From Planctomycetota bacterium (GTDB lineage Bacteria; Planctomycetota; Phycisphaerae; UBA1845), in contig JAJRPG010000058.1 of assembly GCA_024280855.1 (NCBI GenBank), positions 27,504 through 91,503 of the forward strand: a stretch of DNA of 64,000 nt, written 5' to 3'. The position numbers and the translations under genes are program-made. The notes beneath the pieces were generated by a model. The model did not search any database and was not told where the DNA came from. It saw only the letters and a program-made list of their open reading frames with translations. Positions 11,287 through 60,244 of this stretch are shown here, in pieces. The number at the start of each line of letters is the position of its first letter. Position 1 is the first letter of the stretch.

Positions 11287-12537
11287 TCATCGAGATTCAA
11301 TTAGCCACAACCGCAACATATTAAGCACAGCCTTGCACGACCGATCCCGAACCTCTTCCCGCGTGAGGTGATCTCCCAGTACAAGACGCCTAACGTCCGT
11401 CGTACCCTCTCGCGCCAGCCCCACATAGACCAGCCCGACCGGCTTATCCGGCGGCTGCCCTCCCCCCGGACCAGCGATCCCCGTCGTGCTAATCGAAATG
11501 TCACAGCCCGACACCTCCCGACAGCCCTCAGCCATGGCTCTAGCCACGGATTCGCTTACGGCCCCGTCTCGTTCGATCAAGTCATCAGGAACTCCCAAAC
11601 GAGCGGTTTTTGTTGAATTGTGATATAAAATAAACCCTTCCTTGAAATATCCGCTGCTGCCAGGCACGTCCGTCAGTCGCTTAGCCACCGACCCGCCCGT
11701 GCAAGACTCAGCCGTGGCTACGGTCAGCCCGCGTTCGAGGAGCATCTGACCGACGACGCTAGCTAGCGAGTCTTCGTCCTCGCCAAATACGGCTTTGCCG
11801 AGTCGCGTTTTGACTTCAGAAACGTCGTTTTTGAGCAAAATTTGAGCATCAGCGTCATTTTTACCTCTTGCTACGATGCGGATGCTGATGACGCCGTCGG
11901 CGGCCGAGGTGCCGACCGATGGGTTTCGGCCTGGCTCCATCAAATTACCCAATGTGTCACCGATTCTGGCTTCGCTCATGCCGTAGACTAATAAGCGAGA
12001 CTTTATTGTTCGAGCGCCATCTGAAAGTTTGCGGACAAGCGGCTCGATGGACTGCTCGTACATAGCCTTCATTTCACTGGGGACGCCTGGAAGGAGAAAA
12101 AAGTGTCCTGATTGGCTGGAATGGACGATTCCTGGAGCGGTTCCGCGCGGGTTGGGGATTATTTCACAGTTTTTTGGCCGCTTGGCTTGGCACAAGTTGG
12201 AATCTGGCATTGGGCGCTGTAAACGAATAAAAAAAGATTCTAGTTGTTTAAATGCTAAATCGTCTATTTCAAGAGGCTCTTTAAGGGCGATAGCTAGGGC
12301 TTCGCGGGATAGGTCGTCCGGTGTTGGGCCAAGTCCGCCGGTGGTTATGACTATATTGGCTTCGGTCATAGCCCGCTGAAACGATTCGGCAATTTGGGTT
12401 ACATCATCCGAAACTGTTATATGAGATAGGATTCGCAGGCCGAGGTCGGTCAGCCGTTCGGATAGCCAATGGGCGTTGGTGTCGAGACATTGGCCAGTGG
12501 TAAGTTCCGTGCCGATGCTAATAATGATGGCGTTCAT
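11287..12537 (-). CDS. cinA: CinA-like protein (MoCF-type N-domain plus PncC-like NMN deamidase domain)
   Basis: ORF 11287..12603. Start moved to ATG 12537 (MNAIIISIGTELTTGQ...). C-terminal domain contains ATAESCTGG. Confidence 0.85.
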   Translation of the reverse strand: MNAIIISIGTELTTGQCLDTNAHWLSERLTDLGLRILSHITVSDDVTQIAESFQRAMTEANIVITTGGLGPTPDDLSREALAIALKEPLEIDDLAFKQLESFFIRLQRPMPDSNLCQAKRPKNCEIIPNPRGTAPGIVHSSQSGHFFLLPGVPSEMKAMYEQSIEPLVRKLSDGARTIKSRLLVYGMSEARIGDTLGNLMEPGRNPSVGTSAADGVISIRIVARGKNDADAQILLKNDVSEVKTRLGKAVFGEDEDSLASVVGQMLLERGLTVATAESCTGGSVAKRLTDVPGSSGYFKEGFILYHNSTKTARLGVPDDLIERDGAVSESVARAMAEGCREVSGCDISISTTGIAGPGGGQPPDKPVGLVYVGLAREGTTDVRRLVLGDHLTREEVRDRSCKAVLNMLRLWLIESR

Positions 12538-12611
12538 AGTTGATAAGAGTATCAGTAGCTGGCGAAAGCATAAAGCACCAGATAGTTTAATGTAGTTAGG
12601 CAACGAATCAT

Positions 12612-13619
12612 ATGAAGAAATCTGCGACGGTGAAATCTCGAAAAACGGTCCGCCTACTCATGACCTGTATTGGCAGGCGGGTAGAGCTTTTGAATGCCTT
12701 TCGGCGGGCGGCTGAGATGCTCGGGATTAAATTGGAAATTCACGGCGCGGACCTCAACAAGATGTCGCCAGCTATCAACCTGGTGGACAAGGCCCATTTT
12801 GTAGATCGCATTTCGTCGGGGAAATATATCAAGCAGCTTCTTAGCGTGGTGCGTAAAAACAAAATTGATTTATTGATTCCTCTGATTGATACCGAGCTTG
12901 CGCTGCTGGCCGATGCGACGTCACAATTTGAAAAAGCTGGATGCTTAGCTTTGGTTTCTTCGCCGGGTGTGATTGAAACGTGTAGCGATAAGCTTGCGAC
13001 GTTTCGTGCGTTGTCCGATGCGGGGATTGATACGCCAGTGACATGGACGTGGCGTGAGGCACTGAAATTAAAGAAGCACAAGTTTCCTATGTTTCTCAAG
13101 CCGCGGGCGGGTAGTGCGGGGATGGGGAATTATAAAATTAGTACGCTGGCAGAGCTGAAGACTTTTGGTAAGCGCGTGCCCGATGCGATTGTGCAGGAGT
13201 TTGCCGATGGTGACGAATATACGCTTGATGTTTATACAGGCTTTGATGGTAAGCCGCGATGCGCGGTACCGCGAAAACGTCTTGAAGTTCGCACCGGCGA
13301 AGTAAGTAAAGCTGTGATCGTTAAAGATGAGAAGATCATGGCTGTCGGCCTGCGGGTGGCTGAAGTTTTGGGAGAGTGTCGCGGTGTTGTCACCGTACAA
13401 TTGATGCGGAATAAGCGAGGGCGGATTCGGGTGATCGAAATAAATCCACGGTTTGGCGGGGGAGCGCCGTTGGCGATTCACGCGGGGGCCGATTTCCCGA
13501 AGTGGATTTTGATGTCAGTATGCGGGAAGAAGCCGCGGATTTGTAAGACTTGTTTTCGAGATGATGTAGCTATGCTTCGTTATGATGAGTCGGTTTTTGT
13601 GAGTAATGCTAGTCGATAA
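12612..13619 (+). CDS. ATP-grasp domain protein (carbamoyl-phosphate-synthase-like fold, substrate unknown)
   Basis: 335 aa. Contains FLKPRAGSAGMG and IEINPRFGGG. Confidence 0.7.
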   Translation: MKKSATVKSRKTVRLLMTCIGRRVELLNAFRRAAEMLGIKLEIHGADLNKMSPAINLVDKAHFVDRISSGKYIKQLLSVVRKNKIDLLIPLIDTELALLADATSQFEKAGCLALVSSPGVIETCSDKLATFRALSDAGIDTPVTWTWREALKLKKHKFPMFLKPRAGSAGMGNYKISTLAELKTFGKRVPDAIVQEFADGDEYTLDVYTGFDGKPRCAVPRKRLEVRTGEVSKAVIVKDEKIMAVGLRVAEVLGECRGVVTVQLMRNKRGRIRVIEINPRFGGGAPLAIHAGADFPKWILMSVCGKKPRICKTCFRDDVAMLRYDESVFVSNASR

Positions 13620-25193: not shown

Positions 25194-26660
25194 ATGAATC
25201 GACTCGCAGGAATGCTTGAGCAACTCATGAATTCAAACATGCTTCGACATATTATTAATTCAATTATAGCCGTCGTGATATTGTTGGCTGGCGGAGCTGT
25301 TGCGATGAGGCTCGTAGCTACGAAGCCTGCGGCGGCTTCTTATGACAGCTCGTTTTCGGCGATGCCTGAGGTGGCGGTCATGGCTGCGACTCGTCGGTCG
25401 TTGGCTGCGCCGATAGTTGGGTATGGCAATGTTCGCCCGAAGAACCAAATCAATATCATTCCTGAAGTGAATGGTAAGCTGACCAAAGCTCATAAAAACT
25501 TAGCCCAGGGAAATATCATTCCTGAGGGCGAATTACTTTTTGAGATTGACGACACGGTCTATAAAGCGCGTAAGCATCAAGCGCAGGCGGAAGTGCGATC
25601 GTTGGAGGCCGCTTTGCAGCTTCACGATCAGGAATTGCGAAATCTCAACGAGCGGTTGGCTAATGTCGAGGCGATGGTTGAGATTGATTTTCGCGACTAC
25701 AAAACGTCCAAGAAATTATACGAAGACGATAAGGTGGGGACGCCGCGCGATGTTGACATGGTGCATCAAAAATATCTTCGTCAGCAAGACGCACTAGTCA
25801 GTATCAAAAATAGTGTGGCTATGATTCCTCTATTGAAGCTAGAGTCTCATGCTCAGTTAGATGCGGCGAAGGCGAGGCTCGAACAGGCGTTGCACGATTT
25901 GGAGAATACGAAAATTTTCTGCCCGTTCCGCGCTCGAGTGGAGTCTGTGATTGCTCAGGAATCACAAGTGGTCACGGCTCATTTTTCCATAGCGACGTTG
26001 ACTGATTTGGAAGCTTTTGAGATTTCGGTGAGTGTTGATCCTCGTGATCTTCCGTGGTTGGACGAATCGATTCAGCCTGCTGCGCTGGCGCTTACTGATG
26101 AGCCTACGGGGCCTCCTGTGGATATTCGCTGGTCTTCGCCGAACAAGAAGTTTACATGGCAAGGTCAGGTCTCCCGCTTTGAACGCATGGACGAAACGAC
26201 GCGCACGGCTCGGTTGGTGGTTGAGGTGCGTGATATTGATATGAAAGCGACCATCGGCGTGGGGGATGACCATAGGCCTTCGCTTTCGATTGGGATGTAT
26301 TGTCGCGCTGAGTTGCCGGCGGCTGAGTTGTCCGAAGCTGTGTTGGTTCCGCGCCATGCGATTTACGATAATCGTTTCGTGTATGTGGTTGAGACAGAGG
26401 GCGATTCAAAGATTGGCACGCTCGCGCGTCGTCAGATTTCATTGTTGCGAACGATTGGTGATGATGTTCTTGTCGATCATCTTGGTCGAGGTGATAGCGA
26501 CATTTGTGAATTATTGCCAAGCGATTTGGTCGTGACTTCACCGCTGATGCGTCCTATCTTGGGCATGAAGGTATCACTGCGGAAAAATACGTTAGCCAAG
26601 GCTGGTACGAAAACTCCGGTACTTGTCCAGCGCGTACGGCTCGTATCTCATACCGACTAA
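25194..26660 (+). CDS. RND efflux periplasmic adaptor (MFP/HlyD family)
   Basis: 488 aa. N-terminal TM helix, long coiled-coil hairpin and beta-barrel region. Confidence 0.75.
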   Translation: MNRLAGMLEQLMNSNMLRHIINSIIAVVILLAGGAVAMRLVATKPAAASYDSSFSAMPEVAVMAATRRSLAAPIVGYGNVRPKNQINIIPEVNGKLTKAHKNLAQGNIIPEGELLFEIDDTVYKARKHQAQAEVRSLEAALQLHDQELRNLNERLANVEAMVEIDFRDYKTSKKLYEDDKVGTPRDVDMVHQKYLRQQDALVSIKNSVAMIPLLKLESHAQLDAAKARLEQALHDLENTKIFCPFRARVESVIAQESQVVTAHFSIATLTDLEAFEISVSVDPRDLPWLDESIQPAALALTDEPTGPPVDIRWSSPNKKFTWQGQVSRFERMDETTRTARLVVEVRDIDMKATIGVGDDHRPSLSIGMYCRAELPAAELSEAVLVPRHAIYDNRFVYVVETEGDSKIGTLARRQISLLRTIGDDVLVDHLGRGDSDICELLPSDLVVTSPLMRPILGMKVSLRKNTLAKAGTKTPVLVQRVRLVSHTD

Positions 26661-26676
26661 CATTCTTTCGTAGTTC

Positions 26677-27924
26677 TCAAACCACCGCCTCAATCAGATC
26701 GCAAGTTGTTTCTAGTGGTTTGGCTTGATGTAATAGTTTAGCGTATTGATGACATTTGTTTGACACTTCTTTGTTCTCTAATAGTCCAGCAAGTTTCTTG
26801 GCTATCGCTTGAGCGCGAAAGTGTTTGGGTAGAATGGTGTCAGCTATGCCCATACGTTTAAGTCTGTAGGCGTTGTCGGGTTGGTCCCAGGCGAGGGGCA
26901 TGATTAGTTGTGGGATGCGGGCGACCATAGCCTGGGATAATGTGCCGATGCCGCCGTGGTGAACGATGGCTGAGCATCGCGGTAATAATTGGCTGAAGGG
27001 CACATATTTGAAATGGCGCACCGTTTCGGGCAATTGATCGGGAACCTGATCTTCAAACCGTGTCAGCAAAATGCCTCGTCGGCCTAGCGTTTGGCAGGCT
27101 TTTACTGCTTCAGCGAAAAAGCTTCGGGCGTGCATCATGCCGCTACCGGGAGTAAAAGCGATGGGTGCGTCTGTGCCGGCTAGGAATGATTCGATGTGCG
27201 GTTCGAGTTTCTGGTCTTGATTGTGTTCATCGAAGAGGGGGAACCCGGCGTGGCGGAGATGTTGGGGCCAATCTGGTTGTTGGGGTGCGTACCAATCGGG
27301 AAATAACGCGATGATGCGCTGCGGCGATAGCCACCATTCGTGCATCATGCGGTTGATGGGTGGTAGATTGAAAGTGGCTCGATAAGCGTTTATTTTTTTC
27401 ACGATGAAGATGCGATCGAGAAAAACGTCGAGGCTTCGCAAGATTGCGCGATTCACGAATGGTGGAACCCAGCTGGGGATGGGCGGCGCTCCCGCGACGA
27501 CGGGCATGGCGTAGGCGCTGCGCAGGATGGCTGGTTGTAATACGATTGTCACCAGGGGGATGTTGTGGGTTTCGTGGGCGATGCGGGCGCCGAGCGTTGC
27601 ACCGGAGGCGATGATGACGGTGTTCCCCGGTTTGTGTCGTTCGATGATGGCTTCGTATTGCGTGGGCATGGAGCGGGCCATCCATCTGCCTAGCGATCGC
27701 GCACCGGGGATTCCTTTCCAGATGTCGGGGTTAGCCATCTCGTCAAAAAATTCTTTTTCGGTGCCGATGGGGGTAAAATCAAAGCCGTGCTTTTCTGCGT
27801 GACGGGCGAAATGGGCATTGGTCATGAGTGTGACGTGATGGCCTTTGGCGCGGAGCATGATGCCAATGGCGACGAATGGGTGGACGTCGCCTTCGGTGCC
27901 GTGTGTCACAAGAATACAGTTCAC
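26677..27924 (-). CDS. GT1-family glycosyltransferase, RhlB-like
   Basis: 415 aa with a GTG start. Contains GDVHPF, LGARIAHE, LFPDWYAPQQPDWPQHLRHAGFPLFD and HHGGIGT. Confidence 0.75.
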   Translation of the reverse strand: MNCILVTHGTEGDVHPFVAIGIMLRAKGHHVTLMTNAHFARHAEKHGFDFTPIGTEKEFFDEMANPDIWKGIPGARSLGRWMARSMPTQYEAIIERHKPGNTVIIASGATLGARIAHETHNIPLVTIVLQPAILRSAYAMPVVAGAPPIPSWVPPFVNRAILRSLDVFLDRIFIVKKINAYRATFNLPPINRMMHEWWLSPQRIIALFPDWYAPQQPDWPQHLRHAGFPLFDEHNQDQKLEPHIESFLAGTDAPIAFTPGSGMMHARSFFAEAVKACQTLGRRGILLTRFEDQVPDQLPETVRHFKYVPFSQLLPRCSAIVHHGGIGTLSQAMVARIPQLIMPLAWDQPDNAYRLKRMGIADTILPKHFRAQAIAKKLAGLLENKEVSNKCHQYAKLLHQAKPLETTCDLIEAVV

Positions 27925-28056
27925 GCGAGTTCCTCATAGAGGCTTATGGCTTCGCGGGTTGATTGTGTTCGCACCATCTAGCCACGAGATTATTAGCGTA
28001 ACAAAGTAATCACGACGCGCCTACATTGGTAATTGGGTGACGTGTTATTGACTGTC

Positions 28057-28095
28057 CGTGCCCACCCTTCGGGAGTACCTGAAGAATGGGGGAGC
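28057..28095 (+). repeat. hairpin repeat family A, copy 5
   Basis: cgtgcccacccttcgggagtacctgaagaatgggggagc. The inner stem has one G:T(U) wobble. Confidence 0.75.
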
Positions 28096-28096
28096 C

Positions 28097-28134
28097 ATGC
28101 CATCAGAGCCGTACGGCGCAAGCCTGCGGACATG
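28097..28134 (+). repeat. hairpin repeat family B (GCAA loop), copy 1
   Basis: atgccatcagagccgtacggcgcaagcctgcggacatg. Abuts family A copy 5. Confidence 0.75.
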
Positions 28135-28170
28135 TCTTGTGCCTGTTGGCGTGTAAAATAGTTTATTCAC

Positions 28171-28261
28171 GCGCCAGGTGCGGGAATAGGAATGCCACCA
28201 GGCTCGCGCCAGGTGCTCTGGTAAAAATGCCACCAGGCTCGCGCCGGGTGCTCTGATGGCG
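28171..28261. repeat. 35-bp tandem repeat, about 2.5 units (family D)
   Basis: gcgccaggtgc occurs at 28171, 28206 and 28241. atgccaccaggctc occurs at 28192 and 28227. Each unit can form CACCAGGC-tcgc-GCCAGGTG. Confidence 0.8.
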
Positions 28262-28334
28262 TTAGTCCGCTTCCTCACGGGCGCGGTTCTGGTTTGTGGC
28301 TTATCAGGCGCAATTTTGTTATGATTCGCCACTG

Positions 28335-29549
28335 ATGTCATCAGCAGGACCACTTAACATCATTGTGTTCACGGATACTTTTTTTGAAGTCAATGGTATC
28401 GGTTCGTATTATCGAATGCTTTTGAGCTGGGCGAATCGCACGGAAGGGGTTCGCATCAAAATCATTTGCCCGGTTAGGGATGATTTGGACAATGTTGAGG
28501 TGTCTGAGGATGTCATTCCTGTCAGGGGATTTTTGCAGCGGCCTAATCCTTTTTATAAAGACCTTATTATGGGTTTTTTCCCGGTTAAGAAATTGAAACG
28601 AATCGTGGATGAGATTCCTTCGCCGAAGGTTGTTCACATCGCGACATCAGCTTCGATGGGTTGGTGTGCGGCGAAGGTGGCTAGGGATTTGAAAATACCT
28701 GCGGTGGGATACTATCACACTGATTTACAAGAGTATGGTCGCGTTTATGGCGAGCGATGGTTTGGGCGGCTGGGTGGTCGTCTTTGTCGTTATGGGGCGA
28801 AGTGGCTTGATCGATTTGCCTATGGTAGCTGTGCGTCGATGTGCGTGCCAAGTTTGACGGCGAAGGATACGGTAGGTGGTTTTTTTCGAGGCCCGATTGA
28901 GCTGATTGCTAATCCTGTTGACGTTCAAGGCTTTTGTCCGGGGGAAACCAGGGACGGGTCGTTTAGAAAAAAATATGCCCAAGATGGCCGGGTTTTGGTC
29001 GTGGCTGTGGGGCGGGTGGCCAAAGAGAAAAATTTGGACTTGGTCTGCAAGCTGCTTGGTGATGATGAGCGGATTAAACTTGTTTTTGTGGGTGACGGGC
29101 CATATGCGGCTACCCTTCGTCAGAAGTGGGGGGCTTGTGTGACGGGCTTTTTGCATAAGCAGGAATTGCTGGATGCGTATCAGCAGGCTGATGTTTTTGT
29201 TCAGCTTTCAACGAGCGAAACTTTTGGCTTGTCGCTGGTAGAAGCGCTGGCTAGTGGTCTTCCAGCTTTCGCGCTGCGTTCGCAGGGGTTTGTAAGTACG
29301 ATTGAGCCTGGTCGTGGGGTTGATTTGCTTGAGGAGTCAGACCTTGAGACATTGGCTGACCGGTGCGTGGCGTTGGTGAATGATAAGGCGGAATATCAGC
29401 GGCGGTCTCGTCAGGTTCGTGAGCTTGTTATGCGTATTAGCACGGAAGTTATTTTTCCCGCGTTGCAATCGATTCATGAATTATTATTGCCAAGTGACAC
29501 GATAGAATCGGCGGTCTGCCGTTCTAAAGAAGCTGCTTCTGTAAACTAA
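28335..29549 (+). CDS. GT4-family glycosyltransferase
   Basis: ORF starts at GTG 28296; ATG 28335 preferred. Contains VGRVAKEKN and SETFGLSLVEALASGLP. Confidence 0.8.
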   Translation: MSSAGPLNIIVFTDTFFEVNGIGSYYRMLLSWANRTEGVRIKIICPVRDDLDNVEVSEDVIPVRGFLQRPNPFYKDLIMGFFPVKKLKRIVDEIPSPKVVHIATSASMGWCAAKVARDLKIPAVGYYHTDLQEYGRVYGERWFGRLGGRLCRYGAKWLDRFAYGSCASMCVPSLTAKDTVGGFFRGPIELIANPVDVQGFCPGETRDGSFRKKYAQDGRVLVVAVGRVAKEKNLDLVCKLLGDDERIKLVFVGDGPYAATLRQKWGACVTGFLHKQELLDAYQQADVFVQLSTSETFGLSLVEALASGLPAFALRSQGFVSTIEPGRGVDLLEESDLETLADRCVALVNDKAEYQRRSRQVRELVMRISTEVIFPALQSIHELLLPSDTIESAVCRSKEAASVN

Positions 29550-29565
29550 GCCGGTCTCATCGAAC

Positions 29566-30240
29566 ATGACTAATCGCTCATACATCATGCACAAATTATA
29601 CGCTGGCGGAGTCAGGCTGTATCAGCGGTTGTTCATTGAAACGAAAATTTGGGGGCGAGATAAAATTCCGCCCGGTCCAAAAATTTATGCGGTGAATCAT
29701 ATCAGTTCGCATGACGGATTTTGGCTTGCGCCGTTGTTTACCGAGCCGGTGCATTACATCATTGGGCCTGGTTATCAGTCGTGGCTTGGGACGAAATTTC
29801 TTGATGCGATGGAGTCGATAAACGCTTTTGTTCCAGACGCCAGGGATATGGTCGACCAGGCAGCGGACTATCTGAATAAAGGTGAGCCTGTGGTCATTGC
29901 GCCGGAAGGTGATATTCAGGAGACGTTTTCGCTGGGTCGGTTTATGCCGGGGGTCGCGCGAATTTATATGGCGTCCGGGGTTCCAATTGTTCCGATTGCG
30001 ATGCTTACGCCGCGACGAAATTTGAGAGAAAATGTTAAGAAGCGGCAGGTGATTGATGGCCATGTGTTTCGGATGGTTAATTTATTGCGCGGCCCTTTTT
30101 GTTTTAATATCGGTGAGGCCTGGTCGCCTGGTTATGAAGGATTGAGCGAGGCTAAGCAGGTGGTGCGCATTACGCGCGAATTGCGCGAGCGGATGGAGTC
30201 GCTGGTGGAAGATATGCGTATTAATAAGTTCTGGATGTAA
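29566..30240 (+). CDS. PlsC-family (lysophospholipid-type) acyltransferase
   Basis: 224 aa. HX4D motif NHISSHD, and IAPEG. Confidence 0.75.
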   Translation: MTNRSYIMHKLYAGGVRLYQRLFIETKIWGRDKIPPGPKIYAVNHISSHDGFWLAPLFTEPVHYIIGPGYQSWLGTKFLDAMESINAFVPDARDMVDQAADYLNKGEPVVIAPEGDIQETFSLGRFMPGVARIYMASGVPIVPIAMLTPRRNLRENVKKRQVIDGHVFRMVNLLRGPFCFNIGEAWSPGYEGLSEAKQVVRITRELRERMESLVEDMRINKFWM

Positions 30241-30373
30241 TTTTTATCTAATTGTTGAAAAGGTGCTGATTAGAGCATGTGGTGAGGTGTTGTGTGTTTT
30301 CTGGTTGCTTATCTAGTTGGCATTGTTGACACCTTGATAGTGGCAAGGACACTACGCGACGTGTGGTGTCACT

Positions 30374-30411
30374 GGATTCCCGCTCCCGATGTACTTCGGG
30401 ACGGGAATGAC
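30374..30411 (+). repeat. hairpin repeat family F (GGATTCCCGC...CGGGAATGAC type)
   Basis: ggattcccgctcccgatgtacttcgggacgggaatgac. Nested stems around an ATGTACTT loop. Confidence 0.7.
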
Positions 30412-30460
30412 GGGTTGGCGCGGGGATGGCGTGCGTTAATCGCGGCGGAGTGTTTCTGAT

Positions 30461-33400
30461 ATGAAGCCTAAAGAAAGCGGCGGGATTATTGGCGCGATCG
30501 TGCGCAACCCGGTGATGGCTAATCTTATCGCCATTGGCATCCTCGTCGGTGGGGTGGTAGCTGCGCGTCAGCTACCACGAGAAACATTTCCCGATACTAA
30601 CGTCGATCATATTCTGATTACGGTTCCCTACTTAGGTGCTACGCCTGAAGACATTGAGCAGAGTATTTGCATCAAGATTGAGCAGGCGATTCAGGGTGTG
30701 CCCGGTATTTGGGAACTGACTTCGATTTCACGAGAAAATGTAGGGCTTGTGGTCGCGGCGGTGGATACGGATATTTCGCCCACGGCTGATGTGTTGCAGC
30801 AGATTCGTAATAAGGTTGATGCGATTACTACGTTCCCGCCCGATGCCGAAAGGCCGGTGGCGATTGAAGTAGTGATTCGAAGTGTGGTCATCAACATTGG
30901 CATTAGCGGTGATGTGCCTGAGCATACTTTTAAGCACATTGCTCAGCAGATTCATGACGACTTAGTGGCGAATCCCAACATCTCGCAGGTTAGTATCGCT
31001 GGTGTGCGCGATTATGAAGTAGCTATCAAACTTTCTGAGGAAGGGCTGCAGCGGTATGGGCTGACGTTTCAACATGTGATTGAAGCTATCAAGGCTAGTA
31101 GTTTGGATTTGCCTGCTGGTACGGTGCGCACGCAACAAGAAGAGATTAATGTGCGCACGCTTGGCCAGCGATATAACGCTGCTGATTTTTCAGACTTGGT
31201 CGTTATCGCGAAGTCTGATGGCGCGGTAGTGAGATTAGGGCAAATAGCACAGGTACATGACTCGTTTGAGGATGTGCCTCTTTATGGAAGGGTTGACGGG
31301 CAAGCTGGTGCGATGATTACGGTTTCCAAGACGGGGCCTGAAGACATCAGCGAGATTGCTGAGATTGTGCGAAATTATGTCGCCTCTGCGCAGCGCGATT
31401 TGCCAGATGGTATTCACCTAACGACGTGGGCTGATGCGTCGCGCGATGTTGATGGCCGCTTGAAGATGCTTCTTAAAAATGGCATGACGGGCATGGTGCT
31501 TGTGGTGTTTGCGCTGCTTTTGTTTATGGACTTGCGGTCCACGATTGCGGTGGCGCTGGGGATTCCTGTGGCGTTCGCCGGTGCGGTTGCGGTGTTGGGT
31601 GTGACGGATAGTACCATCAATATGATTAGCCTGTTGGGGCTATTGATGGCGACGGGGATTGTGGTGGATGATGCGATTGTAATTGCTGAGGCTGTGCGCA
31701 AACAGTCTCGCGATGGTCTTGCACCTTTAGATGCTGCGGTGGCAGGGACTCGGCGGGTGGCTTTGCCTGTGCTATTGTCTTCGCTGACGACTATTGTGGC
31801 GTTTATTCCGATCATGTTTGTTAAAGGCGTGATGGGAAAGTTTATTTATGTGTTGCCGGTCGTTGTGATTGCGACGATTGTTGCTTCGGCGATTGAAGCG
31901 TTCGCCATTTTGCCGGCTCACTTAGCTGAGTGGGTGAGCGAGAATAAAGCTGACAAAAAGAATTGGCGAACTCGAACGCGGGCTAAGCTGGACCAATTTA
32001 TTGAAATGGTTGTCACGAAGTATTACCGTCCGGTCGTGCGGTGGTCGTTGGCCCATCGGGGTTTGGTCTTGGCTACGGTTGGTGCGTGTGTGCTAATATC
32101 CGTTGGGTTGGTGTTGGGTGGCCGCACGCCGTTTGTGCTGTTTCCCAAGGTGAATGGTAATACGCTCAAGGCGCGGGTTAAATTTCCAGAGGGTACGCCG
32201 ATTGCGACGACAGAAGCTGCGGTGCTTCGATTGGAAACGGCTGCTCGAATGCTAAATAGTGATCCGTTATTAACGACGGGTAAGCCTGGGCCTTTGGTTC
32301 AGCATATTTATTCGGCAGTTGGTGAATGGGCGGAGTTTGTGCCCGACCGAGGCAGCGCTTACGGCGAGACTTATATTGAATTGATGGCTGCGGAAGATCG
32401 TGATATTGACCTGGCGGTTGTGATAGAAAGATGGCGGGAAGCCGTGGGGGAGATTCACGATACGGAAATTTTTACGATCACGCGACAAGCGCTAGGCCCT
32501 ACAGAAAAACCGTTGGAGATTCGGCTGCTTGGTGACGACTTGCCACAATTACGACAGGCTGCGGATGCTGTGGAGGCTAAGTTAGCTTCGTATGAAGGGG
32601 TGTTTGATATTTCTGACGACCTTAATCCGGGTAAGCGTGAGCTTCAGGTTCGTCTTAAACCTAACGCGGGCAACTTGGGGCTTACGGTGGCGGAGGTCGC
32701 TGGGCAGTTGCGGCAAGGTTTGTTGGGGGCGGACGCGGTTCATTTGCAACGGGGTAAGGATGAGGTTGATGTTGTCGTTAGTTATGGCGTGGACGATAGT
32801 CGTAGCATTGGTGCGATAGAGAAGATGCGTCTGCGGACTAGCGGGGGTGTCGAGATTCCTTTTAGCGAAGTACTTGATACGAAGATGGTGCGTGGTTATT
32901 CGTCCATTGGTCGGCAAGATGGCCGACGTCGGATTCGCATTCAAGCTGATGTAGACGAACGCCACGCCAATGCAGAACAAATTGTACAGACTATAGCCAA
33001 GACGTTTTTACCAGACATCACACGAAAATTTCCTGGCGTTACGTTTCTCATCGATGGACAGCGAGCGCGGATTGAAGAGTCGATGGGTAGTTTATTGTAC
33101 GGCATGATTATCGCGATTGCGGTGATGTATGCACTGCTGGGTTTGCCTTTGCGGTCTTACATTCAGCCGTTGATTATTTTGGCAGCGGTTCCGCTGGGCG
33201 TGGTCGGCGCGATCGTTGGGCATCTGGTCATGGGTGCGGACATTACTTTGATGAGTGTGTTTGGTATGGTGGCACTAGCTGGGATTGTGGTCAACGATTC
33301 GTTGGTTTTACTTGATCGCATTAACGGTAATATATCAGAGGGTGTCGGGGTGCGCGACGCGGTAGCGCGGGCAGGAGAGGAACGATTCCGAGCTGTGGTG

Positions 33401-33664
33401 CTGACGTCGCTGACGACTGTGGTGGGTCTATTGCCATTGCTTTTTGAAACCAGCTCGCAGGCTCAAGCGCTTATTCCCTTGACGATTTCAATGGTGTTTG
33501 GGCTGATGTTTGCGACTGTTCTTACGCTCATTGTTGTACCTGTCATGTTTATCGCGGCGAATGATCTAAAACGATTGGCTCATTGGTTAAGGCGAGGCGG
33601 GGCGTTGCCTTCGCCGGAACGTGTTGAACAAGCAGCCCAGGAGGCCGTCGGCGCTGTGGCGTAG
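30461..33664 (+). CDS. RND efflux transporter permease (AcrB family)
   Basis: 1067 aa, 12-TM architecture with two large periplasmic loops. Confidence 0.9.
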   Translation: MKPKESGGIIGAIVRNPVMANLIAIGILVGGVVAARQLPRETFPDTNVDHILITVPYLGATPEDIEQSICIKIEQAIQGVPGIWELTSISRENVGLVVAAVDTDISPTADVLQQIRNKVDAITTFPPDAERPVAIEVVIRSVVINIGISGDVPEHTFKHIAQQIHDDLVANPNISQVSIAGVRDYEVAIKLSEEGLQRYGLTFQHVIEAIKASSLDLPAGTVRTQQEEINVRTLGQRYNAADFSDLVVIAKSDGAVVRLGQIAQVHDSFEDVPLYGRVDGQAGAMITVSKTGPEDISEIAEIVRNYVASAQRDLPDGIHLTTWADASRDVDGRLKMLLKNGMTGMVLVVFALLLFMDLRSTIAVALGIPVAFAGAVAVLGVTDSTINMISLLGLLMATGIVVDDAIVIAEAVRKQSRDGLAPLDAAVAGTRRVALPVLLSSLTTIVAFIPIMFVKGVMGKFIYVLPVVVIATIVASAIEAFAILPAHLAEWVSENKADKKNWRTRTRAKLDQFIEMVVTKYYRPVVRWSLAHRGLVLATVGACVLISVGLVLGGRTPFVLFPKVNGNTLKARVKFPEGTPIATTEAAVLRLETAARMLNSDPLLTTGKPGPLVQHIYSAVGEWAEFVPDRGSAYGETYIELMAAEDRDIDLAVVIERWREAVGEIHDTEIFTITRQALGPTEKPLEIRLLGDDLPQLRQAADAVEAKLASYEGVFDISDDLNPGKRELQVRLKPNAGNLGLTVAEVAGQLRQGLLGADAVHLQRGKDEVDVVVSYGVDDSRSIGAIEKMRLRTSGGVEIPFSEVLDTKMVRGYSSIGRQDGRRRIRIQADVDERHANAEQIVQTIAKTFLPDITRKFPGVTFLIDGQRARIEESMGSLLYGMIIAIAVMYALLGLPLRSYIQPLIILAAVPLGVVGAIVGHLVMGADITLMSVFGMVALAGIVVNDSLVLLDRINGNISEGVGVRDAVARAGEERFRAVVLTSLTTVVGLLPLLFETSSQAQALIPLTISMVFGLMFATVLTLIVVPVMFIAANDLKRLAHWLRRGGALPSPERVEQAAQEAVGAVA

Positions 33665-33700
33665 ATAGCTGATGAATGAATGAGATTGTCAGGAGGCGAT

Positions 33701-35311
33701 ATGAATAGCCGAAATGATTTTTGTATCGAAAAAAGTGTGCGTTGTCATGTAAAACTCTTCGGCCTACGTGCTGGTTCGGTTTTCGTGTGTGGGCTGATAT
33801 TATTTTCTGGTTGCCGTGTACCGCTCACGAAGTTGGAGTCAATCGTTCAACGTCATCGTGAAGCGATGGCTGAGTTGCCGCCCGAAGATTCTATTCGCAT
33901 TGATGCTTATGGTACGCCGGTACCTATGGATTACGCCAAGCGTATGTTGCCGGAAGGTGAGCTGACGATTGAAGATGCGCGAGGCATAGCTGTGCGGGCC
34001 AATCCTGACATTCACACGGTGCAAGCTCGTTTGGAGGCTGCGGCTGCGAGAATTGAGGAAGCGCGGGCACAGTTTTTTCCACAGATATTTTTTGCTCATA
34101 ACACCACGCGCGTTTTTCAAAGGCCCTCCAATGGCTTAAGTTTTGAATCGTTGATCTCACCCAACGCGGTGGCGACGCCCGCACCACAGGGTACAAACTT
34201 TCTCACCGAAACGTTACGAAATTTGGTTTTGGGTAGTGATGTGAATAAGCCAAATCGTAGCGCATTCAGCGAACATACAACAGGTTTGTCGCTTAGTTGG
34301 ACGGTTTTTGATGGCTATATTCGAGATGCGCAGTTGCGCGCGGCTAAGTATGTTCATCGGGCATCAGCGATGGCGCTGGCAGACATGCAGCGGATTGTCG
34401 TGCAAGCGGTGGATACAGCCTACTTTAGAGTTCAGTTAGCTGAGGAGCAGTTGCGCATTTCTAAGGCTGACGAAACATTTAGTCAGGAGCAGCTTCAGGA
34501 GACGCAGAAACTCGAAACGGCTGGTCGGGCAACCTTGTCTGATGTCAACAACTTTCGTGTGCGTATGTTAGTCGCCAAGGCTAACGTGACGGCTGCGATG
34601 GGTAATCGTGAAATTGGCCGGGTCGCGCTCGCGGAGCTGATGGGATTAGATGGCGTGGATTTGCCTGTAGCGTTAGAACTTTCGCCGTTACAAACGGAAA
34701 CGCCTGAGGCGATGGCTAAGCCTTTGGTTTCGCAATGTATTCAGGATGCATTGACGAACCGGCCTGACACTGCACAGTTAAAGCATTTGGTTCATAGCCG
34801 GGAGGCGCAGGTTCGGGCTGCGAAAGGGTTGGCTTACCCGCTGGTAGCTGCTACGGGTTCGTGGGGATTTAACGACAACACGAATATCCGTTACAGCAAT
34901 GAAGACCAGACCTCGGCTGCGATTATCGCTGTTCGTTGGGCACTTTATACGGGTGGGGCTATTGAAGCGCGCGTGCGAGAGACTGAAGCTCAATTAGATG
35001 AAGCCGAAGCGCGAGAGAGGCGTATAGTGCTTGCGGTTCAATCAGAGGTTAAGCAGGCGGTGATTGCGCTGACGGATGCGCAGGCGCAAATCGTACTGCG
35101 CCGCGAGGCTTTGGAAACATCTTTCGAAAACAGGCGCATTGTGCAAGCGGCGTATTTAGGTGGGAAGCAGCCTTTGACAAGACTCAATGAGACGCAGCGG
35201 GATTATATTGCTGCGGATGCGAACCTGGCTCGGGCGCGAATTCGCCTTCGTCAGGCGTGGAGTGAGCTGGATGCGGCGACGGCTACTCAAATAATTAGCG
35301 AAGAGAATTAG
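33701..35311 (+). CDS. TolC-like outer membrane efflux protein
   Basis: ORF starts at 33680. ATG 33701 is preceded by AGGAGG. Duplicated OEP repeats with coiled coils. Confidence 0.8.
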   Translation: MNSRNDFCIEKSVRCHVKLFGLRAGSVFVCGLILFSGCRVPLTKLESIVQRHREAMAELPPEDSIRIDAYGTPVPMDYAKRMLPEGELTIEDARGIAVRANPDIHTVQARLEAAAARIEEARAQFFPQIFFAHNTTRVFQRPSNGLSFESLISPNAVATPAPQGTNFLTETLRNLVLGSDVNKPNRSAFSEHTTGLSLSWTVFDGYIRDAQLRAAKYVHRASAMALADMQRIVVQAVDTAYFRVQLAEEQLRISKADETFSQEQLQETQKLETAGRATLSDVNNFRVRMLVAKANVTAAMGNREIGRVALAELMGLDGVDLPVALELSPLQTETPEAMAKPLVSQCIQDALTNRPDTAQLKHLVHSREAQVRAAKGLAYPLVAATGSWGFNDNTNIRYSNEDQTSAAIIAVRWALYTGGAIEARVRETEAQLDEAEARERRIVLAVQSEVKQAVIALTDAQAQIVLRREALETSFENRRIVQAAYLGGKQPLTRLNETQRDYIAADANLARARIRLRQAWSELDAATATQIISEEN

Positions 35312-35646: not shown

Positions 35647-37473
35647 CTATTCTACCGTCACGCTCTTGGCTAGGTTTCTTGGTTTATCAACATTGCATCC
35701 TCGAATGACGGCTGCGTGATAGGCGATTAGTTGAAGTGGTATCACGGTGAGCAGCGGTTGCAATGGTTCGAGGGTGTCGGGTACATATAGCACATGGTCA
35801 GCTAAGTCTTGAATGTCTTTGTCACCTTCCGTAGCTATGGCGATGACGCTTCCGCCTCGGGCACGCACTTCGGAAATGTTGCTGAGAATTTTATCATATT
35901 GCGAGCCAGTGGTGGCGATACAGACTACGGGCATGCCATCGGTAATCAAAGCGAGTGGCCCATGTTTCATCTCGGCGGCTGGTAGACCTTCTGCGTGAAT
36001 GTAACTAATTTCTTTGAGCTTAAGCGCACCTTCTAACGCGACCGGATAGTTATATCCTCTACCCAGGTATAGCCAATTTTCGCGGCTGGCATATTCGCGT
36101 GCTACTTTTTCGGCGGTGTCGGCATGTCCTAAAGTAGTGCGAATCTGGTCAGGAATAGCTGACAATGCTTTCATAAATTGCATGGCTGCGGATGGAGAAA
36201 GATGTTTGCGCCTTCCAAGAAAGCACGAGATGAGTGCCAACACGGCGACCTGGCCTGTGAACGCTTTGGTGCTAGCTACGCCAATTTCCGGGCCTACATG
36301 CAAATAGACGCCTGCGTCTGTTTCTCGTGGGATGGTAGCTCCTACGACGTTTACCACGCCAATCACGAGCGCTCCGCGCTGCTTCGCTTCTCGTATCGCA
36401 GCTTGGGTGTCGGCTGTTTCACCACTTTGCGAGACGGCGATAACGACGGTTCCTTCGTCGATGATTGGATTTCGATAGCGAAATTCGCTGGCATATTCTG
36501 TTTCGGTGGGGACGCGCAGCAATTCTTCAAACAAGTATTCGCCGACCAGTCCTGCATGCCAAGCCGTTCCGCAGGCGGTGATGATAATTCGTTTCGCTTG
36601 GGTGAGTTCTCGGGCGCAGTCTGCTAAGCCGCCAAGATGTATCACGCCTTCTTTAAGATCGATTCGGCCGCGTAAACAGTTTTCCAATGCTTCAGGTTGT
36701 TCGTAGATTTCCTTGAGCATGAAGTGTTCGTAGCCAGCTAATTCGATCTGGTCGAGCGTCCATTCAACCTCTTCAGTTTCCTTCGCGACGGGAACGGCAT
36801 CCAAAGTTGTAATTCTTAAACTGTCGGGCGTAATGCGTGCTATCTCGTTGTCACCGATGTAAACAACCTGAGTTGTATGGGCTAGAATAGCTGCGGCGTC
36901 CGAAGCTAAAATGTGTTCGCCTTGTCCAACGCCAACGATCAACGGGCTACCTTTTCGAGCGGCGATAATGAGGTCTGGTTCGTCGGCGCAAACGACAGCC
37001 ATGCCGTACGTTCCGGAGACTTCGCGCAGCGCGAGACGCACCGCTTGTTCCAAATCACCTTCATATAGTTGGGCAATAAGCTGAACGAGGACTTCGGTAT
37101 CGGTCTCGCTGGTAAAGATCACGCCTTTTTGTTCGAGATAGGTGCGCAGTGTGCGATTGTTTTCGATGATGCCGTTGTGGATGATGGCGAATTTTCCGCT
37201 GGAGTCCGCATGTGGGTGCGCGTTGACGTTGGTTGGTGCGCCATGCGTCGCCCAGCGTGTGTGGCCTATGCCGTGCGTTTGGGGGTGGGCGTCGTAGTCG
37301 AGGGTTCCTTCGAGGACGGATAATCGACCGGCAGCTTTGAGAACAGTAACCTCGCTCGGCTGAACCAAGGCGACGCCCGTTGAGTCGTAGCCTCGATATT
37401 CAAGTCTCCGCAGACCGTCGATGAGAATCGGCAGCGCGGGCTTTCGGCCAACATATCCAATGATCCCACACAT
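35647..37473 (-). CDS. glmS: glutamine--fructose-6-phosphate aminotransferase
   Basis: 608 aa. N-terminal MCGIIGYVG, two SIS domains, ends in KSVTVE. Confidence 0.97.
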   Translation of the reverse strand: MCGIIGYVGRKPALPILIDGLRRLEYRGYDSTGVALVQPSEVTVLKAAGRLSVLEGTLDYDAHPQTHGIGHTRWATHGAPTNVNAHPHADSSGKFAIIHNGIIENNRTLRTYLEQKGVIFTSETDTEVLVQLIAQLYEGDLEQAVRLALREVSGTYGMAVVCADEPDLIIAARKGSPLIVGVGQGEHILASDAAAILAHTTQVVYIGDNEIARITPDSLRITTLDAVPVAKETEEVEWTLDQIELAGYEHFMLKEIYEQPEALENCLRGRIDLKEGVIHLGGLADCARELTQAKRIIITACGTAWHAGLVGEYLFEELLRVPTETEYASEFRYRNPIIDEGTVVIAVSQSGETADTQAAIREAKQRGALVIGVVNVVGATIPRETDAGVYLHVGPEIGVASTKAFTGQVAVLALISCFLGRRKHLSPSAAMQFMKALSAIPDQIRTTLGHADTAEKVAREYASRENWLYLGRGYNYPVALEGALKLKEISYIHAEGLPAAEMKHGPLALITDGMPVVCIATTGSQYDKILSNISEVRARGGSVIAIATEGDKDIQDLADHVLYVPDTLEPLQPLLTVIPLQLIAYHAAVIRGCNVDKPRNLAKSVTVE

Positions 37474-56051: not shown

Positions 56052-57449
56052 CTATATATTTTTTGGTACACAAGATGATGAACATTTCTGAATCGCTAGT
56101 TGTATCAATTGTGTAGGAGATTCTACGAGTGCGCTGGCGTCTAATATCGCGCTGGCTAGGGTCCAGAGATGTTGGATGGTGTGCGTGCGCTCGCCTCGAA
56201 CGGCATGAATGCAGCATAATCGAGCCAGTGCGCAGGATAAATAAAAGGCAAGGCGCGATACATTGATTGTGCCTCCGTGTTTGATGTAAGACGCGACAAA
56301 GCTTTCGGCGATGTCGCTGGTTTGTTGACTATCGAAATTTTGTTGAGCGTTGTCCAGCAGCAGATGGGCTAGGAATGTAGCTAGGTCAACTTCGCGCTGG
56401 GCGGTGCATATCGTATCGAGGTCTAATAGCCAAGTTGTTTTTTCGTGCTGTAATAGTTGGGCGTGATAGAAATCTCGGTGGACCATGACGAGGTCATCTG
56501 AAGCATGACGGTTAGCCTGGTCACTTAGCCTTTCGATGATCGTTGATAATGTGCTTTGCTCAAGCGATTTACATATAAGCGTTAGAACATCAGGCCAGCG
56601 AGTGAGCGTTCCGAGTTCATCGGCTATTGAGTGGGTGGTATTTGTGGTTTTGGGGTCGCAAGCATGTAAGCAGGCGAGCACTTTAGCTGCCAGAGCGACG
56701 CCGTCTTGCTGATAAGATAATGGCTGGGCGTCGCCGTGAACACGGGATGTGACGATCAAGCGTTTTGTATGATCGATAGCTAGGGTCGTTGTTAGCATGA
56801 TTGTGTCTTGACTAAGTTGTTGTAGTTGTTGATGAAGTTGAGACAGAGATTCGAGGTCATAGCCTTTGGGCAGTCGGTGGAATGCCTTCACCATGACACC
56901 TGCATGGTTGGTGTGATTGTCTTGCGTTACTTGCACAATACAGCGTTTCTGCACGCGATATCCTTTAAGCGATAGTTGTAATTGATCTGGAGAATAGTCT
57001 GCAAGTATCGGTGTTTCTGCAGGACTGTCGATGGATGAGAGTAGATTGGCTAGTTCTTGGTGATCGAAAAGTTCTGCGGCGCAGCGTATGCGTTTGTCGC
57101 GGTCGGGTGAGCAGACCCAGAGGTCTTGAGAATCGTGGCGAAGTCTTACGCCTAGAAGGGCGTCTCCGAAAACTTTAGCCTTGTGACGCGACGTTTTCCA
57201 ACGAGGTTGACTTCGCCAGCCGCCTTGCAGGGTGACTTCGCGCGGGGTGGTTTTCGTATTGAGTGTGATCAATAGTTCAAAAGAAATTTCTTTTCGACGA
57301 GAAGGCCAAAGTCGGCGCAATTTCAGGTGTGAGAGCGAAGTGTCTGCAGGCCATTGCACGGATGTTGAAAGCCAATCATGCAACACGTCGAGCGGCTGAG
57401 CGAGCGGGCAAGATTCATTTGAAATGATGTCACTAAGCTTTTGTGTCAT
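56052..57449 (-). CDS. kinase-like protein C (APH/WaaP-like fold)
   Basis: ORF 56052..57473; ATG 57449 preferred. Contains VHRDFYHAQLL, LLDLDT and DLATFLAHLLL. Confidence 0.65.
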   Translation of the reverse strand: MTQKLSDIISNESCPLAQPLDVLHDWLSTSVQWPADTSLSHLKLRRLWPSRRKEISFELLITLNTKTTPREVTLQGGWRSQPRWKTSRHKAKVFGDALLGVRLRHDSQDLWVCSPDRDKRIRCAAELFDHQELANLLSSIDSPAETPILADYSPDQLQLSLKGYRVQKRCIVQVTQDNHTNHAGVMVKAFHRLPKGYDLESLSQLHQQLQQLSQDTIMLTTTLAIDHTKRLIVTSRVHGDAQPLSYQQDGVALAAKVLACLHACDPKTTNTTHSIADELGTLTRWPDVLTLICKSLEQSTLSTIIERLSDQANRHASDDLVMVHRDFYHAQLLQHEKTTWLLDLDTICTAQREVDLATFLAHLLLDNAQQNFDSQQTSDIAESFVASYIKHGGTINVSRLAFYLSCALARLCCIHAVRGERTHTIQHLWTLASAILDASALVESPTQLIQLAIQKCSSSCVPKNI

Positions 57450-57453
57450 CGGA

Positions 57454-58134
57454 TTATGGATTGCATTTAGCACAAGGGGCTAACCCTTCTTTGAATGCTT
57501 TACCCGTGCTTTTGAAGACGACCTTACGTTCCGGTTTAATTTTGTCGCATTCTTCACATTGAGGTCGATGGAAATTTCCGTATTTGCGATCAGCGATGTA
57601 TTGGCTTTCTCGTGAGGATTTATGAGATTTCCAAAGACCTCGTCGGTAAAGGCGGGCTTCTTCCTGTGCGGCGAGTAGTCGTTTTTTGAATCTGTGGTTT
57701 TCGTCCGTGAGTCTGACGTAAGCTAGGCCTTCCTTGATGAGCGTTTCGTTGACGAATGTGCTATCTACAAAAACGTATACCAACATGCGGCCTTTGGCGT
57801 CATACTTTTTTTTACCAAACCGCAGTCGAAGCCTTTTACCCTTCACTAATTCATTGTTACGTTTTAGCGATGTTTCAAATAGGGGATGGTTTCTTAATGG
57901 AGCACGCATGCCAGTGTAGATGATGTAATCGTCATCTTTTTCGCCGTCTGTATCGATTTGGACTTTGACGCCACTGATGGCGTATTCCGCTTCCACATAA
58001 AGCGCACGATGCGGGTCGCGTTTGTTGGCGATGGGTTGCGTAGGCCAAAAGGCAAAGGCCAACGCTGTCACGGCTAGGGCTGCAATGATGGCGGAGTAAA
58101 GCCATCGACGTTCAGCAAAGTAGTCTAAAGACAT
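57454..58134 (-). CDS. membrane-anchored SNase-fold protein (catalytic residues not conserved) with C-terminal Zn-ribbon (Ada-like)
   Basis: 226 aa. DAKGRMLVYVFVDSTFVNETLIKEGLAYV aligns to the S. aureus nuclease segment [29 protein letters not shown]. C-terminus has CEEC...CAKC. Confidence 0.7.
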   Translation of the reverse strand: MSLDYFAERRWLYSAIIAALAVTALAFAFWPTQPIANKRDPHRALYVEAEYAISGVKVQIDTDGEKDDDYIIYTGMRAPLRNHPLFETSLKRNNELVKGKRLRLRFGKKKYDAKGRMLVYVFVDSTFVNETLIKEGLAYVRLTDENHRFKKRLLAAQEEARLYRRGLWKSHKSSRESQYIADRKYGNFHRPQCEECDKIKPERKVVFKSTGKAFKEGLAPCAKCNP

Positions 58135-58140
58135 GAGTGA

Positions 58141-60236: not shown

Positions 60237-60244
60237 GTTTTAAT

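Follow-up and report, generated by a model that had tools for sequence, protein, structure and literature searches.

What might two glycosyltransferase genes and an acyltransferase gene be doing among the components of a tripartite efflux pump? This question is raised by positions 25194-35311 of a 64-kb stretch of DNA, hereafter the window, from the genome of an uncultured organism that its closest relatives place in the Phycisphaerae (Planctomycetota). The locus encodes a periplasmic adaptor (membrane fusion protein, MFP), an RhlB-family glycosyltransferase (GT1), a retaining glycosyltransferase (GT4), an acyltransferase of the PlsC/LPLAT superfamily (AT), an inner-membrane permease of the resistance-nodulation-division (RND) type and a TolC-like outer-membrane factor (OMF). 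The reading favoured here, to which a probability of about 0.55 is given, is that these genes form an uncharacterised locus for the synthesis and export of an acylated glycolipid, and that the window carries a compact version of a type specific to a Phycisphaerae lineage. Domains were assigned by Pfam and NCBIfam profile searches, and the loci fetched from relatives are coded L001-L174.

All six open reading frames (ORFs) are intact, and Pfam and NCBIfam bear out the gene identities given in an earlier reading of this DNA (the original prediction), whose coordinates also hold except for one start. On the plus strand lie MFP (25194-26660, 488 aa), GT4 (28335-29549, 404 aa), AT (29566-30240, 224 aa), RND (30461-33664, 1067 aa, HAE1-like and divergent) and OMF (33680-35311, 543 aa), and on the minus strand GT1 (26677-27924, 415 aa, GTG start). 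The OMF gene had been placed at 33701-35311; its end stands, whereas 33701 is an internal Met and the ORF begins at ATG 33680, 15 nt past the RND stop codon. For GT4 the longest ORF starts at GTG 28296, and the N-termini of seven homologues favour the ATG at 28335 chosen originally. As predicted, 3.8 kb separate the end of MFP from the start of RND, GT1 converges on MFP (stop codons 16 nt apart) and diverges from GT4, and the gap between GT4 and AT is 16 nt. The three pump genes therefore do not form one contiguous operon in the window, being parted by a 3.8-kb insert that includes an opposite-strand gene, and MFP is a transcription unit separate from the other pump genes.

The evidence that carries the glycolipid reading comes from the neighbourhoods of AT, whose family is narrow (33 matches in 5.8 billion proteins) and whose homologues in the contexts compared share 44-52% identity. 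A non-redundant set of 37 AT loci was compared, of which many span just a few kb. An RND gene is present in 10 of them, against 2 of the 78 GT1-anchored loci that served as controls (p = 1.8e-4). An orthologous RND occurs in 9 of the 37 and in none of the 78 controls (p = 1.8e-5), and MFP in 7 as against 0 of 78 (p = 2.3e-4). A glycosyltransferase, whether RhlB-like GT1, GT4 or a PF13528 protein, accompanies AT in 19 of the 37 loci. At least nine different arrangements place AT homologues beside an orthologous RND, OMF or MFP together with GT4 or GT1: an unknown 585-aa membrane protein-GT4-AT-AT-RND-OMF (L086); OMF-RND / AT-AT-AT / GT4 (L089); GT1-AT-PF00198-MFP-RND-methyltransferase, then a second GT1-AT pair (L088); GT1-PF00198 / AT-RND-OMF (L096); OMF-RND-MFP / AT / GT1-desaturase (L097); GT1 / methyltransferase ... 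AT-MFP-RND-OMF (L104); GT4-GT1 / AT-MFP-RND ... OMF (L146); MFP / unknown membrane protein / GT4-AT (L084); and MFP-GT4 ... AT (L091). Across these AT loci the pump proteins are 46-60% (RND), 55-58% (MFP) and 46-50% (OMF) identical to those of the window. GT and AT genes are thus non-randomly linked with MFP, RND and OMF genes, and a linkage that survives so many rearrangements is a stronger sign of functional coupling than a kept gene order would be. The original prediction had named a contiguous pump with the cassette elsewhere as speaking against it. MFP, RND and OMF are indeed contiguous in L097, L104 and L146, yet AT and the glycosyltransferases lie directly beside them, and the prediction mostly survives this comparison.

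AT is the constant core of this family of loci, and relatives hold one to three paralogous copies of it each. Its other recurrent neighbours are a fatty-acid desaturase, a lipase/LCAT-like hydrolase, a PF00198 acyltransferase, a methyltransferase and a sulfotransferase. The window was searched for accessory genes of the relatives, and it contains no desaturase, lipase-like hydrolase, methyltransferase, 600-aa polytopic membrane protein, sulfotransferase or PF13528 glycosyltransferase; its locus is therefore a minimal version. Eight others of the 37 AT loci (L092, L093, L101, L106, L107, L113, L114 and L121) carry a PF13469 sulfotransferase directly upstream of AT, often with a TMEM260-like (GT-C-type) membrane protein and a heparinase II/III-like protein, a context that may represent a sulfated variant of the pathway. 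In three relatives a conserved polytopic membrane protein stands beside GT4 (L084:6462-8417, minus strand; L086:6011-7816, plus strand; L089:13605-15566, plus strand). This protein has 570-650 aa, at least seven hydrophobic segments and no Pfam match, and is a candidate for a flippase or a GT-C-like enzyme; the window does not encode it.

The exact layout of the window is rarer than the linkage itself. Loci of 80 GT1 homologues were compared from Planctomycetota, Gemmatimonadota, Acidobacteriota, Verrucomicrobiota and Chloroflexota, and the arrangement is common only to the two closest relatives, L001 (85%) and L003 (70%). L001 shows the order OMF-RND-AT-GT4 / GT1, its adjacent MFP having been lost; in L003 all the genes are present, together with an extra PF00198 acyltransferase, of the chloramphenicol acetyltransferase (CAT) fold, between GT4 and GT1. 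Apart from the window, L003 alone shows the wedged layout in which GT1 is convergent.

GT4 combines PF13439, PF00534 and PF13692, shows an EX7E motif in its translation and has no predicted membrane segment. Its best two NCBIfam models are both lipid glycosyltransferases, GlcNAc-PG synthase (92.8 bits) and MGlcDAG synthase (78.5 bits), and its sequence matches in the PDB are generic (BshA, PimB'). GT4 orthologues of 48-54% identity adjoin AT in L084, L086, L089, L091, L095 and L146. AT matches PF01553 (53.6 bits), lacks predicted membrane segments and is predicted to be soluble or peripheral. Its HX4D (H45, D50) and PEG (P113-E114-G115) motifs are invariant across 26 homologues, and its only PDB match is PlsC of T. 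maritima (E = 2e-4). An assignment as bona fide PlsC (1-acylglycerol-3-phosphate acyltransferase) was considered and rejected, the score for TIGR00530 being 28.8 bits against a cut-off of 102.95.

The pump, for its part, is a complete tripartite set in which MFP, RND and OMF are all present at full length. MFP passes the cut-off of TIGR01730 (RND_mfp; 112 bits against 94.9), matches PF13437 and has a single hydrophobic N-terminal anchor at about residue 14. Its orthologues (55-79% identity) lie beside AT, GT4 or RND in L003, L084, L091, L097, L104 and L146, and a partial match (48% identity over 57% of the query) lies beside AT in L117. RND matches PF00873 at full length (545.7 bits over 1021 profile positions) and stays below the cut-offs of characterised NCBIfam models, the best being RND_permease_2 (472.7 against 1250 bits), with MdtC at 304.7 against 1774; the pump belongs to a divergent, uncharacterised clade. 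Orthologues of 46-60% identity are found beside AT in L086, L089, L095, L096, L097, L098, L104 and L146, and L103 has only a 91-aa RND fragment there (58% identity, 7% of the query). OMF contains two PF02321 repeats (174.6 bits) and matches TIGR01844 (148 bits), and its orthologues (46-50% identity) lie downstream of the RND gene in L086, L089, L096, L097, L104 and L146.

GT1 contains PF03033, PF06722 and PF00201 and no predicted membrane segment. By BLASTP it is 35% identical to RhlB of P. aeruginosa PAO1 over 418 aa, at full length (233 bits, E = 6e-77); an exact look-up identified the RhlB query as UniProt Q9HYD1, "Rhamnosyltransferase chain B". The best match among solved GT1 structures, GtfD, reaches only 65 bits. 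The stretches said earlier to be shared with RhlB (LGARIAHE; SPQ..LFP.W.AP.Q.DWPQ.L...GFPLFD; H.GGIG) all appear in this alignment. A neighbour-joining (NJ) tree was built from 93 members of the family and rooted with distant GT1 paralogues; 28 of 30 bootstraps place RhlB within the family of the window's GT1. Because RhlB falls inside this family and GT1 does not cluster with an unrelated GT1 subfamily, the outcome that the original prediction had flagged as damaging, GT1 can be called RhlB-like, and tree and alignment together show a genuine homologue. Its N-terminal GxxGD..P and C-terminal HHGGxGT...DQ donor-binding motifs are intact: G9, G12, D13, P16, H323, G324, G325, G327, D347 and Q348 are invariant across 28 homologues, and H322 and T328 are conserved in at least 90%. 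The GT1 proteins that adjoin AT and RND and are at least 50% identical to that of the window form one clade (30 of 30 bootstraps). This pump-associated subclade is distinct from RhlB, with which it shares 34-40% identity. The label "RhlB-like" is, taken alone, an ordinary one.

The pathway that we infer, from acceptor lipid, sugars and order of steps to the identity of the pump's substrate with the enzymes' product and the destination of that product, would run as follows. GT4, AT and GT1, which lack membrane segments, would be cytoplasmic and act at the inner face of the cytoplasmic membrane. GT4, as a retaining enzyme, would transfer a hexose or an N-acetylhexosamine from a UDP-sugar to a lipid acceptor. 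AT could then attach an ester-linked acyl chain, taken from an acyl thioester, to the sugar or to a hydroxy-acyl group, as OlsA acylates a hydroxy-acyl group in ornithine lipid synthesis. The inverting, RhlB-family GT1 would put a further sugar on a free hydroxyl. The product would need to be flipped to the periplasmic side, from where the anchored MFP, RND and the TolC-like channel may carry the amphiphilic glycolipid to the outer membrane, the surface or the medium. The coupling of the pump to the glycolipid is proposed from gene content and context.

Four other explanations deserve to be weighed, two of which turn on the identity of GT1. A classical rhamnolipid pathway, in which GT1 would rhamnosylate hydroxyalkanoyloxyalkanoic acid (HAA) made by an RhlA encoded elsewhere and the pump would export mono-rhamnolipid, could draw on the full-length homology to RhlB and on the name 'rhamnosyltransferase subunit B', which JGI gives to many GT1 homologues of Planctomycetota and other phyla (other homologues carry the label of a YjiC-type flavonoid glycosyltransferase); it could also point to Serratia and Dickeya, where rhlA lies apart from rhlB. 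However, tblastn with a validated RhlA gave no match below E 0.6, either in the window or in the 170 loci around GT1 and AT homologues, which bears out the earlier remark that no rhlA-like gene lies in the window. Nor do the ORFs of the 64-kb window include rml-type genes or domains or an rhlC-type GT2, the second glycosyltransferase being a GT4 (PF13439/PF00534). RhlB homologues moreover take other sugars and other acceptors: the Pantoea homologue uses a hexose, and RlpC of the variovoracin cluster acts on an acylated dipeptide. An identity of 35% is too low for the substrate specificity of RhlB to be transferred to GT1. Since neither the window nor the 170 loci encode the HAA synthase RhlA, a rhamnolipid product is unlikely and not supported, and since RhlA is missing from every fetched GT1 or AT locus (L001-L170), the label 'rhamnosyltransferase subunit B' is over-specific; the classical pathway as a whole is highly improbable. 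Just as improbable is the modification and efflux of a xenobiotic or antibiotic, whereby GT1 would inactivate a toxin in the manner of a macrolide or rifamycin glycosyltransferase, AT would modify it further and the pump would expel the conjugate. GT1 does adjoin an efflux pump, its PDB matches include OleD/OleI and Gtf enzymes, and it has partial NCBIfam matches to MGT, Rgt and OleI-type glycosyltransferases. These matches, however, lie far below their cut-offs (59.8-84 against 260-800 bits) and mostly cover the C-terminal donor-binding domain only, whereas GT1 matches RhlB far better and over its whole length, and the genes that accompany the relatives' loci encode lipid enzymes, not resistance proteins.

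The two remaining explanations concern the pump, and with them come several observations that weigh against a glycolipid synthesis and export locus. The 78 GT1 loci other than L001 and L003 (38-45% identity) hold no pump, GT4, AT or conserved neighbour, for which reason GT1 is not a useful anchor and AT is. Of the 11 AT loci whose flanks are long, five contain no RND gene. When four RND orthologues (L171-L174, 55-60% identity) were picked solely for their long contigs, regardless of context, none of the four had AT, GT4 or GT1 within 10 kb. The complete genome CP070744.1 carries its MFP-GT4-AT cassette (L084) 2.3 Mb away from the nearest RND orthologue (L174), and this orthologue has an MFP of its own. 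GT4 misses the equivalog cut-offs of both lipid models (92.8 against 480 and 78.5 against 400 bits), the AT score against the characterised lipid-enzyme model is likewise far below its cut-off, and the window contains no flippase, sugar-nucleotide or lipid-scaffold genes. A coincidental neighbourhood, in which an ordinary multidrug or solvent pump stands next to a GT1, GT4 and AT that serve unrelated envelope biosynthesis and the synteny is simply inherited in one lineage, would accommodate the cassette-free RND orthologues, the GT1 homologues of other phyla without fixed neighbours, the housekeeping flanks described below and the separate transcription of MFP. It is nevertheless doubtful: the linkage has outlasted many rearrangements and changes of strand in organisms that share only 44-52% identity in AT, the enrichment over controls is strong (p 1e-4 to 1e-5), and MFP is still found beside GT4-AT where RND is elsewhere (L084, L091). 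Somewhat better placed, though still improbable, is a structural envelope lipid, that is, a strain-variable surface or outer-membrane glycolipid, with the RND clade acting as a general Phycisphaerae envelope-lipid exporter that serves other lipids too. In its favour, L097, L128 and L146 are close relatives (YidC 75-87% and RND 84-87% identical) with a common Metallophos-YidC-lipase-like flank, and they retain AT and the pump while their glycosyltransferases at this one chromosomal position are swapped or duplicated, as in surface-glycan loci. L146 has GT4 and an RhlB-clade GT1; L097 has a fatty-acid desaturase and a GT1 that shares only about 35% identity with the one in L146; and L128 has a PF13528 glycosyltransferase, a desaturase and three tandem GT1 paralogues (77-83% mutually identical). 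AT is kept in all three and diverges faster than the flanks (56-75% identity). Some cassette-free RND orthologues also adjoin other lipid genes. That of L172 is transcribed divergently from the gene of an OlsF-like bifunctional acyltransferase (PF19576, PF01553 and PF13444; L172:7654-9378, minus strand), and that of L174 lies beside an MlaD/MlaE/MlaF system with an ABC_trans_aux protein and a GDSL lipase (L174:13230-17734); both contexts may point to a role of the RND clade in the handling of envelope lipids. Such neighbours were found, however, at only two of the four sampled loci, a small sample, and L171 and L173 have none; no established precedent, moreover, is known in diderm bacteria for anterograde lipid transport by HAE1-type RND pumps, outside HpnN and MmpL-type transporters. 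Ranked by confidence, the structural lipid comes first among these four explanations, coincidence second, and the xenobiotic and classical rhamnolipid explanations share the last place.

The glycolipid synthesis and export locus is thus retained, with one correction. The original prediction spoke of a glycolipid cassette with a dedicated exporter; its linkage of glycosyltransferases and acyltransferase to the pump and its likeness of GT1 to RhlB both stand, and nothing points to a rhamnolipid. "Dedicated" is too strong, because all four sampled RND orthologues lack the cassette and the parts lie 2.3 Mb apart in CP070744.1; the pump clade is broader than the cassette. A speculative extension, for which our confidence is low, is that AT and the MFP/RND/OMF clade constitute the fixed core of a hypervariable Phycisphaerae surface-glycolipid locus, analogous to O-antigen or capsule loci, in which glycosyltransferases are swapped or duplicated and the RND clade would export glycolipids, perhaps also aminolipids, to the outer membrane. 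If true, it would give HAE1-type tripartite pumps a lipid-trafficking role not yet established for them.

The 27925-28334 interval between the divergent GT1 and GT4 genes is likely to be a shared control region. It contains a 35-bp tandem repeat (28170-28251, 2.3 copies, consensus CGCGCCAGGTGCGCGAATAAAAATGCCACCAGGCT; Tandem Repeats Finder score 108, with a second repeat finder in agreement), whose motif has no further occurrence in the window. A stretch of about 28024-28290 that holds this repeat has no counterpart in L001, and the repeat may be an operator or a small insertion. A degraded PF00198 acyltransferase gene between GT1 and GT4, its place in L003, was also looked for, and the window holds no trace of one. 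The 220-nt spacer between AT and RND (30241-30460) may hold an internal promoter. An Rfam scan of the window, this spacer included, gave no matches, and no consensus promoter or terminator was called in the spacer, a scan that is uninformative because it returned fewer sites than in shuffled sequence.

Both flanks of the locus are housekeeping in character, with the nuo operon, cinA, serA, a serC-like aminotransferase gene, tyrA and thrC upstream and glmS and rarA downstream. The product of glmS (35647-37473, minus strand) catalyses the first step towards UDP-GlcNAc, and the gene is convergent with OMF; its position is kept in L001 and L003 and not in more distant relatives, and the gene's presence here probably reflects synteny of housekeeping genes, not membership of the cluster. 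GC skew flips sharply from about -0.16 to +0.25 near 12600, at the junction of cinA (11287-12603, minus strand) and an ATP-grasp gene (12612-13619, plus strand). Leftward of this point all genes are on the minus strand, and past it the skew remains positive for the remaining 52 kb regardless of gene strand. The switch resembles the type seen at replication origins or rearrangements, yet the gap between the two genes is only 8 nt and no dnaA lies nearby. A recent inversion or transfer of GT1, suggested by its unusual GC skew, was rejected, as other minus-strand genes of the same 52-kb stretch behave alike. Further downstream, a run of minus-strand genes (56052-63453) includes three paralogous APH-family phosphotransferase-like genes (473, 467 and 451 aa), an SNase-domain protein, a type IV pilin-like protein with an N_methyl motif and a fused 619-aa ABC exporter.

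The lipids and natural products of Planctomycetota, and of Phycisphaerae especially, are poorly explored. Among the papers of the library searched, none describes this locus and none links Planctomycetota or Phycisphaerae with RhlB-type enzymes or glycolipid clusters. If the glycolipid reading is true, a narrow AT family, variable glycosyltransferases and an RND pump would together mark a recognisable and mineable family of glycolipid clusters, which could yield new biosurfactants or surface glycolipids and would exemplify the coupling of a tripartite RND pump to glycolipid export. A further implication would be that enzymes of the RhlB family occur widely beyond the Proteobacteria and function there without RhlA.

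How, then, does the locus compare with known systems? Pairs of a GT4 and an acyltransferase are established in membrane glycolipid synthesis, as in PimA/PimB' with PatA and in the MGlcDAG synthase system. The window resembles them in the succession of a GT4 gene and an acyltransferase gene, here 16 nt apart, and in the presence of PimB' among the PDB matches of GT4; it differs in that AT is a PlsC-like PF01553 protein, not one of the PatA/LpxL type (PF03279), and in that GT4 scores far below the equivalog cut-offs of the known lipid enzymes. With P. aeruginosa RhlB (Q9HYD1), GT1 shares the GT-B fold of GT1 enzymes, 35% full-length identity, common motifs and membership of the same NJ family, and is unlike it in having no RhlA partner nearby. 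The mycobacterial MmpL-linked loci for glycopeptidolipids (GPL), phenolic glycolipids (PGL) and sulfolipid combine GT1 rhamnosyltransferases, acyltransferases and methyltransferases with an RND-superfamily exporter. They are alike in clustering cytoplasmic glycosyltransferases and acyltransferases with an RND-superfamily lipid exporter, and relatives of the window's locus also hold a CAT-fold PF00198 acyltransferase and a methyltransferase. In contrast, the pump here consists of an HAE1-like RND with MFP and a TolC-like channel, of the Gram-negative envelope type, instead of MmpL, and genes for a lipid scaffold made by a polyketide synthase or nonribosomal peptide synthetase are absent from the window's locus.

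The nearest precedent is the rhl cluster of Burkholderia. In Burkholderia thailandensis and B. pseudomallei, rhlA-rhlB-rhlC are accompanied by an EmrB-type major facilitator superfamily (MFS) protein, an EmrA-type MFP and a NodT-type OMF, proposed to be rhamnolipid exporters (PMC2804600); the variovoracin cluster, too, carries an efflux gene, RlpF. An RhlB-family GT1 clustered with tripartite efflux components that span the outer membrane is thus common to Burkholderia and the window. The permease belongs to the MFS there and to the RND type here, and the window, from a planctomycetal host, replaces RhlA and RhlC with a GT4 and a PlsC-like AT as the partners of GT1. The modular turnover of glycosyltransferases sets these Phycisphaerae loci further apart from both the Burkholderia rhl clusters and the MmpL-linked systems.

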